8,031 bases of DNA from a virus (taxonomy: Duplodnaviria; Heunggongvirae; Uroviricota; Caudoviricetes): IMG/VR virus record IMGVR_UViG_2526164690_000036; one strand, given 5' to 3'. Positions 5,991 through 7,038 of this stretch are shown here, in pieces. The notes beneath the pieces were generated by a model. It saw only the letters and a list, made by a program, of their open reading frames with translations, did no database searches and had not been told where the DNA came from. The translations under genes were made by a program, and so were the position numbers. How positions within the stretch are numbered: the first letter of the stretch is position 1; the number at the start of each line of letters is the position of its first letter.

Positions 5991-6230
5991 ATGCTGAAAC
6001 AGCAGGATATGACAGAAACCGCCAGAGTTGTGTTTGATGAATTAAGCGTCACCGAACCGGCGACGGTCGGGGAGATTGCGCAGAATACGTACCTTTCACG
6101 CGAGCGCTGCCAGTTAATACTGACCCAGCTGGTTATGCGGGTCTGGCAGACTATCAGTTCGGTTGTTACAGACGCCTTCAGTCCTGAAGGCTTTTTTATT
6201 TGTGGTAAATGGGCGGCTGGTGGGTGTTAG
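5991..6230 (+). CDS. Hypothetical small protein (79 aa), possible winged-helix regulator (PapI/FaeA-like pattern, weak)
   Basis: ORF with a moderate ribosome-binding site (AAAGGG). Segment TVGEIAQNTYLSRERCQLILTQLV resembles the helix-turn-helix of small FaeA/PapI-type regulators; this is pattern-level similarity only. Confidence 0.45.
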   Translation: MLKQQDMTETARVVFDELSVTEPATVGEIAQNTYLSRERCQLILTQLVMRVWQTISSVVTDAFSPEGFFICGKWAAGGC

Positions 6231-6258
6231 CGGCACCTGTCAGTCCTTTGCTTATGTG

Positions 6259-6289
6259 TTGATGATAATTTACCTTTTGGGGCTATAAT
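6259..6289 (+). promoter_or_regulatory. Candidate promoter for the AraC-family gene (perfect -10 TATAAT at 6284-6289; possible -35 TTGATG with a long 19-bp spacer)
   Basis: Hexamers read from the sequence, about 36 nt upstream of ATG 6325. Confidence 0.35.
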
Positions 6290-6324
6290 TGAACTAACCA
6301 ATTGCTAATGAAAGTAAAATTATA

Positions 6325-7038
6325 ATGGTTGTTGTCTGTTCAGTTATCATGGTTTGCTCCCCAATTAATATTTTTCTTGAAAAGGATACGTTGTCACTTA
6401 AGCCCGGCTCAGTCGTTCTGGCCACCAAATGCATCAGGGCGCTTTTCCTTATGCATTATGGCAAAGTTAAAATTTTCGATATAAACCATTCCATAGTAAG
6501 TCAATATCTGGAAATTCAGCATAAGCTGACAAGAACTCATCTGACTGACGTTCCGCTTTATCTGTCACTGGAACCCAACAACCCTGCGTTGGCTGAGGCT
6601 TTAATTACCAGCCAGAGATTTTCCGGAGATACCACGGATATGTTTCTTATGATGGCATGCCTGTCGCTGTTTGAATCAGATGAACGGATATTATTATTTT
6701 TAAGTGGATGTTTATCCAGTATAAGTGCCAAAGTCAGGGCGATAATTCAGACAGATATATCAGCAAGCTGGACGCTTGGTGCGATTGCGTTACGCCTGCA
6801 TATGAGTGAGAGTTTGTTAAAGATAAAACTGAAAAATGAAGGGCACATGTTCAGTCGCTTGTTGCTGGAAGAGCGGATGCGTGTTGCTGTCAATATGTTA
6901 TGTTCCCGGCATGGATATGGACAGGCTGTAGCAGAAAAATGCGGTTATTCAAGCTGGTCCTACTTTATTTCTGTATTTCACCGCTATTATGGCTTCCCGC
7001 CAGACAGATATGTATCCAGGCAAGGGCTTGATTATTGA
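6325..7038 (+). CDS. AraC/XylS-family transcriptional regulator, AppY/EnvY-like (prophage-borne)
   Basis: C-terminal AraC helix-turn-helix (WTLGAIALRLHMSESLLKIKLKNEGHMFSRLLLEERMRVAVNML...VAEKCGYSSWSYFISVFHRYYGFPPDRY) aligns by eye with AppY ([25 protein letters not shown]...[28 protein letters not shown]). The gene is AT-rich. Alternative start at ATG 6349. Confidence 0.8.
   Translation: MVVVCSVIMVCSPINIFLEKDTLSLKPGSVVLATKCIRALFLMHYGKVKIFDINHSIVSQYLEIQHKLTRTHLTDVPLYLSLEPNNPALAEALITSQRFSGDTTDMFLMMACLSLFESDERILLFLSGCLSSISAKVRAIIQTDISASWTLGAIALRLHMSESLLKIKLKNEGHMFSRLLLEERMRVAVNMLCSRHGYGQAVAEKCGYSSWSYFISVFHRYYGFPPDRYVSRQGLDY

Follow-up and report, generated by a model that had tools for sequence, protein, structure and literature searches.

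What is a pair of small open reading frames (ORFs) doing between an insertion sequence and a cluster of tRNA genes in a tailed-phage genome, and do the two belong together? The question is raised by an 8,031-nt stretch of viral DNA (IMG/VR record IMGVR_UViG_2526164690_000036; Caudoviricetes), referred to throughout as the window, in which ORFs encoding 79 and 237 amino acids lie on the plus strand at 5991-6230 and 6325-7038, exactly where an initial annotation had put them. That annotation was also right in placing them between an IS10 element and a tRNA cluster, the IS10 lying upstream and three tRNA genes downstream at 7067-7316, and it took the ORFs for an AT-rich pair of regulators carried as prophage cargo. 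The window corresponds to the late-regulatory region of a lambdoid prophage of Shiga toxin-producing (STEC) or enterohemorrhagic (EHEC) Escherichia coli, and from position 423 to 8031 two single-base deletions are all that distinguish it from the chromosomal sequence of O111:H11 strain 88.0502 of that species. We propose, with a probability of about 0.93, that the larger ORF belongs to the psrA cassette and encodes an AraC/XylS-family activator of gadE and yhiF, the small ORF being a frameshifted backbone gene and no partner to it. Our own analysis covers the identity, domains, cassette boundaries and distribution of psrA; its target genes and phenotypes are taken from the literature.

By its sequence, the larger gene is psrA, in an exact copy of a gene that was already known. 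Its 714 nt are 100% identical to nucleotides 1178677-1179390 of the Sakai chromosome NC_002695.2 (ECs_1087, prophage Sp4) and to 1266008-1266721 of re-sequenced EDL933, and a recent paper names this very locus 'psrA (ecs1087, Sp4)' and describes PsrA as activating gadE (PMC13502914, 2026). Annotations of O111:H11, O145:H28 and re-sequenced EDL933 list the same protein, WP_000261909.1, at the corresponding position. The Sakai gene shares its flanks with the window as well (the CPBP gene, the small ORF, ileZ-argN-argO and the esterase gene), and differs in context only, as the window additionally has the upstream IS10 and, at its left edge, the end of another IS10. A second Sakai copy, ECs_2191 in Sp11, is identical at 215 of 237 residues (90.7%; coding DNA, 94.1%), and is taken as PsrB because this figure fits the 90% identity to PsrA given in reviews for PsrB (z2104, OI-57; PMC10877973, PMC8565820, PMC4456613). 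Like psrA, it fills the slot that separates the small ORF from the tRNA genes, but in another prophage, one that also carries nleG2-3, nleG6-2, nleG5-2 and pchB; most of its 22 substitutions affect the N-terminal domain, and it is preceded by an intact small ORF.

The distribution of psrA is in keeping with a gene of attaching-effacing and Shiga-toxin E. coli prophages. Across 5426 complete E. coli genomes, psrA-like DNA was found in 726, at 1324 places, and the carriers among the matches listed were mostly STEC serotypes (O157:H7, O111, O103, O145 and O55:H7). The window shows a lambdoid late region with Q, rusA, hok and tRNA genes, and pchA lies in the same prophage as psrA in Sakai and EDL933, the pch gene falling outside the window.

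A question of gene start bears on how the protein should be recorded. Both Sakai psr genes are annotated from Met43, as 195-residue proteins (8127-8714 in locus L002 and 39932-40519 in locus L014). The 42 upstream codons, including an N-terminal MxxVCSVI motif, are conserved in all Psr homologs, and the motif recurs in AppY, YdeO and GadW; because of this conservation translation is likely to start at the ATG at 6325, and the 195-residue forms are probably truncated. The entry should thus read 237-aa PsrA, rather than 'helix-turn-helix domain-containing protein' or the 195-aa form.

What kind of regulator is PsrA? Its profile matches identify it as an AraC/XylS family transcription factor, with a regulatory domain in its N-terminal part followed by a double helix-turn-helix domain at the C terminus (about residues 134-233). 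The AraC helix-turn-helix anticipated by the initial annotation is present in hidden Markov model searches of the 237-aa protein, with HTH_18 scoring 36.6 bits over residues 155-230 (Pfam cut-off, 33.6) and HTH_AraC scoring 35.3 bits (cut-off, 26.6). The closest solved relatives by sequence are the DNA-binding domain of GadX (3mkl, E 1.5e-18) and then Rns, CsvR and ToxT. An AlphaFold model of PsrA (mean predicted local distance difference test score, pLDDT, 72.4; residues 99-118 below 50) superimposes on GadX in its DNA-binding domain with a template modeling (TM) score of 0.87 and a root-mean-square deviation of 1.9 Å, and aligns over its full length with CsvR and Rns (E about 1e-10) at a global TM of about 0.4. 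Among NCBIfam profiles the best match is the YdeO equivalog NF007407, in which residues 1-229 align to positions 1-230 of 253 at 104.1 bits against a cut-off of 348, and the second is GadX. PsrA is therefore a member of the GadX/GadW/YdeO/AppY subfamily and an ortholog of none of its named members.

The nearest chromosomal relative is YdeO by NCBIfam score and GadW by alignment score. Overall identity to PsrA is 88-90% for the PsrB-type clusters, falls to as low as 40% among further E. coli homologs, and stands at 37% for GadX, 35% for GadW, 34% for YdeO of K-12, 34% (33.8%) for EnvY, 31% for AdiY and 29% (29.2%) for AppY; the DNA-binding domains of the relatives of PsrA are 39-52% identical to its own. 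The K-12 proteins YdeO, GadW, GadX, AppY, EnvY and AdiY share the two-domain architecture and 39-49% of the DNA-binding domain, and YdeO and GadX/GadW also act on gadE, but they differ from PsrA in 29-37% overall identity. The AppY/EnvY-like kinship first suggested for the protein thereby recedes to a distant family resemblance (29-34%) within the same broad subfamily, others being nearer. The initial annotation had also placed both AppY and EnvY in DLP12; in the RefSeq K-12 genome appY does lie inside that prophage, whereas envY (586147-586908) begins just past its end at 586056.

Another relative is PatE (EDL933 z0321), likewise a prophage-borne AraC-type activator of acid-resistance genes. 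If Sakai ECs_0287 is taken as PatE, an assignment made from position only, then PatE shares with PsrA an N-terminal CSVI motif and 51% of the DNA-binding domain, but is 37% identical overall and sits in a slot at the end of Sp1, not in the late region between Q and the tRNA genes. The suggestion that the window carried a prophage AraC-like regulator of the PatE/Psr type acting on host acid-resistance and virulence regulons was well aimed: the gene is PsrA, with targets known from the literature. With the virulence activators Rns, CsvR and ToxT (6xiu, 9gfp and 3gbg), sequence matches extend over PsrA residues 102-230; identity is 15-22%, and the global TM of about 0.4 reflects domain orientation and the moderate confidence of the model.

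The boundaries of the psrA insert can be drawn from related prophages. The homology shared with an ST131 prophage and with Shiga toxin (Stx) phages extends across the small ORF, breaks off at about 6236-6245 and picks up again at about 7064, immediately ahead of tRNA-Ile; these breakpoints delimit a plus-strand cassette of promoter and gene of ~0.8 kb (about 6245-7063). In related prophages and Stx phages a DNA methyltransferase gene takes the place of this cassette. In ST131-type prophages, and likewise in about 290 phage records from public deposits (most of them Stx2-converting phages), the small gene has a DNA methylase rather than psr as its next neighbor downstream. The sole record among 291 matching phage records with psr and not a methylase in the slot is the complete phage genome phiSTEC1575-Stx2k, in which the tRNA genes and stx2k come immediately after a psr homolog (91% DNA identity). 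From these alignments, psrA together with its promoter is an alternative insert in a variable slot between a small backbone gene and ileZ-argN-argO. The expectation that no essential phage function would be found at the site fares well accordingly, because the slot is variable and most related phages have a methylase there.

On its downstream side the slot is bounded by the plus-strand genes ileZ (anticodon CAU), argN (UCG) and argO (UCU) at 7067-7316. ARAGORN calls the first of these (7067-7142) tRNA-Met with anticodon CAT, and genome annotations call it ileZ. The ileZ product is a tRNA-Ile, its CAU anticodon being read as isoleucine once modified with lysidine.

The cassette differs in composition from what precedes it. 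psrA has a GC content of 42.3% and the 94-nt spacer upstream of it 34%, against 53.4% in the hok-rusA block, so the description of both genes as AT-rich holds for psrA; it fails for the small ORF, at 51.2% (56% at third codon positions). Much the same division applies to the promoters that had been claimed for each gene. A TATAAT stands exactly at 6284-6289, as the initial annotation had it, within the GC-poor spacer and preceded by a weak -35 element ATGATA at 6262 at a spacing of 16 nt; a consensus scan scored this plus-strand candidate (6262-6289) at 10 of 12 consensus matches. Upstream of the small ORF, the same scan found no sigma-70-like site on the plus strand between 5750 and 5990. The scanned region holds six promoter-like sites against 3.1 +/- 2.1 in shuffled sequences, which is not above chance, and the TATAAT is therefore a plausible promoter element rather than a demonstrated one. 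The candidate site is conserved upstream of the psr gene in phiSTEC1575-Stx2k. The 94 nt before psrA (6231-6324) also differ from the corresponding region of Sakai psrB (L014 40646-40780, minus strand) at a single base, a closer match than the 94.1% of the coding DNA, and so the regulatory region is either more conserved than the gene or recently exchanged.

Two terminator-like hairpins precede this promoter on the plus strand. One, at 6174-6197, combines a 7-bp stem and a 4-nt loop with a run of six T (-10.5 kcal/mol, z = -2.6); its position coincides with the end of the small gene in the intact form, ahead of the candidate psrA promoter, and its stem shows compensatory changes in the ST131 copy. 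The other, at 5846-5867, is upstream of the small ORF, is also followed by six T, and has a fold that is not distinctive (z = -1.6); related prophages keep it immediately after their Q genes. The whole of 5833-6330 is base-for-base identical to Sakai.

A feature that sets this window apart from the Sakai psrA locus is the complete IS10 at 4504-5832 on the minus strand, between the CPBP gene and the small ORF. It has the hallmarks of this IS4-family element: a length of 1329 bp, a 402-aa transposase (4517-5725) and a 9-bp target duplication, CGCATAGCT, on both sides at 4495-4503 and 5833-5841, from which a simple insertion with no deletion can be concluded. RNA-OUT is recognized at 5718-5787 on the plus strand (97 bits), pointing toward psrA. 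The insertion occurs in two of the 5426 complete genomes, both bovine O111:H11, and is absent from Sakai, EDL933 and O145.

At the left edge of the window, positions 1-422 hold the 3' part of a second IS10 on the plus strand, inverted relative to the complete copy and with a few base differences. The 'inside' ends of the two elements face a 4.08-kb segment (423-4503) that comprises sok/hok, DUF968, rusA, Q and CPBP, a geometry like that of Tn10. This left copy was found in no complete E. coli genome among the 5426, the best matches beginning at window position 423.

Could these elements have changed what psrA does in this lineage? It is conceivable that psrA is here silenced or rewired, and expressed otherwise than in O157:H7, either because the IS10 insertion, or an IS10-mediated rearrangement between the two inverted copies, uncouples it from upstream phage transcription or because the outward promoter pOUT drives it. 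The IS10, whose RNA-OUT and pOUT are directed at psrA, lies 158 nt ahead of the small ORF, a second inverted end is present at 1-422, and the arrangement is rare, the right copy being known from only the two genomes and both copies together from none. We nevertheless consider such rewiring quite unlikely, as psrA, its candidate promoter and the 490 nt upstream are base-for-base those of Sakai, both hairpins (5846-5867 and 6174-6197) stand between the IS10 end and psrA, and the 9-bp duplication denotes a simple insertion without deletion. Improbable, too, is a more speculative pair of ideas: that the little-studied N-terminal domain of PsrA is a candidate ligand sensor of the Rns/ToxT type, with a fatty-acid pocket through which a gut lipid might gate a PsrA-GadE-LEE switch (LEE, locus of enterocyte effacement), or, relatedly, that in an O111:H11-like lineage the IS10 insertion or inverted IS10 pair might alter psrA expression or mobilize the Q-CPBP segment.

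Can the psrA cassette be understood without the small ORF? The proposal of a regulator pair is not borne out. Aligned with the O145:H28 and ST131 prophage copies, the ORF at 5991-6230 is seen to lack one G at 6137 (G here, GG in intact alleles), so that the native sequence is kept in residues 1-49 and the final 30 are read in another frame. Sakai Sp4 and EDL933 have this deletion too, but O145:H28 RM13516 and the ST131 prophage do not. Sequencing error was considered as the cause of the frameshift and rejected, since Sakai and EDL933 carry the same allele, as do hundreds of finished genomes. Intact copies encode 65 residues ending in ...LVMAGLADYQ(C/F)GCYRRLQS. The gene corresponds to phrog_331, a family with no assigned function, and bears the NCBI name 'TrmB family transcriptional regulator'; PGAP treats the present allele as a frameshifted pseudogene. 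Members of 63-65 aa occur in Escherichia, Shigella, Salmonella, Klebsiella, Citrobacter and Buttiauxella, and the C-terminal tail conserved across these genera is precisely what the window copy has lost.

The winged-helix likeness of the small protein is slight. The intact 65-aa form reaches 17.8 bits against TrmB (E 0.003), below the cut-off of 25.6, whereas the 79-aa form of the window has no Pfam match better than E 0.2 and no NCBIfam match. A model of the 65-aa protein contains helices at 4-18, 25-32, 36-48 and 53-62 and no strands, at a low confidence (pLDDT 62.8), and a Foldseek search with it returned no match with E below 0.69, the top matches all being winged-helix domains.

It could be argued from these data that the small gene and psrA form a two-gene regulatory module, in which a winged-helix protein serves the AraC activator as partner or anti-activator. 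The small gene is adjacent, co-oriented and upstream not only of psrA but also of psrB and of the psr gene in phiSTEC1575-Stx2k, its intact product has weak winged-helix-type matches (MarR_2 and DprA_WH besides TrmB), and its model has a three-helix core resembling a helix-turn-helix, with winged-helix domains foremost among its non-significant fold matches. We hold such a module to be very doubtful. The small gene was found in 2135 of the 5426 genomes, at 4038 places and in up to seven copies per genome, about three times the 726 genomes (1324 places) of psrA, and it is usually beside a methylase, which follows it instead of psr in the roughly 290 phage records and in the ST131-type prophages. 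A terminator-like hairpin intervenes between the two genes; in the window, as in Sakai and EDL933, the allele beside psrA has a frameshift and lacks its conserved tail; and O145:H28 RM13516 has an identical PsrA beside an intact small gene, much as Sakai psrB is preceded by an intact copy. All Pfam matches of the small protein, moreover, are below their cut-offs, and the confidence of its model is low (pLDDT 63). A role as partner regulator was accordingly rejected on distribution, frameshift and the intervening hairpin. Because of its wide distribution, its methylase neighbors and its occurrence beside psr in both intact and frameshifted states, the small gene is instead regarded as part of the conserved backbone from Q to the tRNA genes, and the small ORF upstream of psrA as a decayed backbone gene.

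With psrA standing by itself, its published functions can be considered. According to reviews, PsrA and PsrB, both AraC/XylS proteins, raise GadE and YhiF, which leads to repression of the LEE operons and type III secretion; deletion of psrA increases secretion, psrA contributes to persistence in sheep, and for PsrB direct binding to the promoters of hdeA and gadE is described, along with an increase in acid resistance (PMC10877973, PMC8565820, PMC4456613). In addition, pulse expression of HnrS, a prophage small RNA that represses hha, makes psrA and gadE rise together (PMC13502914). HnrS is located in other prophages, namely Sp9, Sp10 and Sp12. The joint rise is consistent with, and no proof of, silencing of the AT-rich psrA promoter by H-NS/Hha.

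From these elements a mechanism can be sketched. PsrA would bind DNA through its C-terminal double helix-turn-helix domain and, following published work on this very protein and on its 90% paralog PsrB, would raise the chromosomal acid-resistance regulators gadE and yhiF; GadE and YhiF would then repress the LEE operons, also as described in the literature, so that type III secretion would fall and acid resistance rise. Expression of psrA may start from the TATAAT at 6284-6289, the AT-rich promoter may be silenced by H-NS/Hha, and prophage induction may bring additional psrA read-through from the Q-dependent late transcript, while the upstream 79-aa ORF would be dispensable for PsrA function. 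That the AraC protein regulates phage genes only, whether in the lysis-lysogeny decision or late, with host effects incidental, is barely credible: psrA does lie in the late region downstream of Q, where it could be transcribed with late genes, and the phiSTEC1575-Stx2k homolog is immediately upstream of stx2k, but published deletion and complementation of psrA alter type III secretion through gadE and yhiF, the reported targets of PsrB binding are chromosomal promoters, the gene is dispensable for a phage type in which most relatives carry a methylase at that place, and many of the carrier prophages are defective (Sp4/CP-933M).

Several points weigh against our assignment of psrA as an activator of gadE and yhiF in this prophage. 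The function is transferred here from identical or near-identical O157:H7 proteins, and the sources are reviews together with the 2026 paper; direct DNA binding is reported for PsrB and not explicitly for PsrA. The psrA promoter is a consensus match only, in a region without enrichment of such matches, and the IS10 lying 158 nt upstream of the small ORF, together with the two terminator-like hairpins between IS10 and psrA, could alter expression in this lineage. There is finally a conflict over location, as psrA (z1789) is assigned to OI-50 in reviews and found in Sp4/CP-933M in finished genomes.

The conflict can be followed in EDL933 itself. Reviews put z1789 in OI-50/CP-933N with espK, nleL and espN. 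In the re-sequenced genome, psrA lies beside a PerC/Pch gene in the prophage next to yccA (CP-933M, the counterpart of Sakai Sp4; 1240001-1290000), and no AraC gene was found in the potB/potC prophage CP-933N (1626001-1676000). The OI-50 assignment probably reflects the original EDL933 assembly. Phenotypes obtained from deletions of the whole OI-50 island may therefore need to be read again.

The remainder of the window holds further features. From the left, sok/hok lies at 832-1156, a DUF968 gene at 1604-2653, rusA at 2666-3037 and the Q antiterminator gene at 3018-3398. The CPBP/CAAX-protease gene (about 3550-4366) is Z1787 of Jandu et al. 2009, whose primers match 3567-3587 and 4040-4059, and which is reportedly needed to block interferon-gamma/STAT-1 signaling (PMC2654852). 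In the window it carries two single-T deletions in T-runs (T7 against T8 in O111:H11 88.0502), near 3691 and near 4011, and is split by them into three ORFs; these may be either real gene decay or homopolymer sequencing errors. On the other side of the tRNA genes, and before the esterase gene that starts at 7807, the small RNA EvrS, which regulates the LEE and gut colonization, can be placed at 7423-7577 on the plus strand, its cloning primers matching exactly at 7423-7442 and 7558-7577 (PMC11774850). It falls within an Rfam STnc100 match at 7393-7583 (138 bits). With psrA and EvrS both present, one window thus contains two published LEE regulators.

The slot that psrA occupies is an exchangeable one, just upstream of the tRNA and stx position, where most Stx phages carry a methylase. 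psrA is said to go back to Tree et al. 2011, and PsrB to Yang et al. 2015. As already described over those years, psrA and psrB encode regulators by which prophages commandeer the GAD acid-resistance system of the host and thereby control type III secretion in EHEC.

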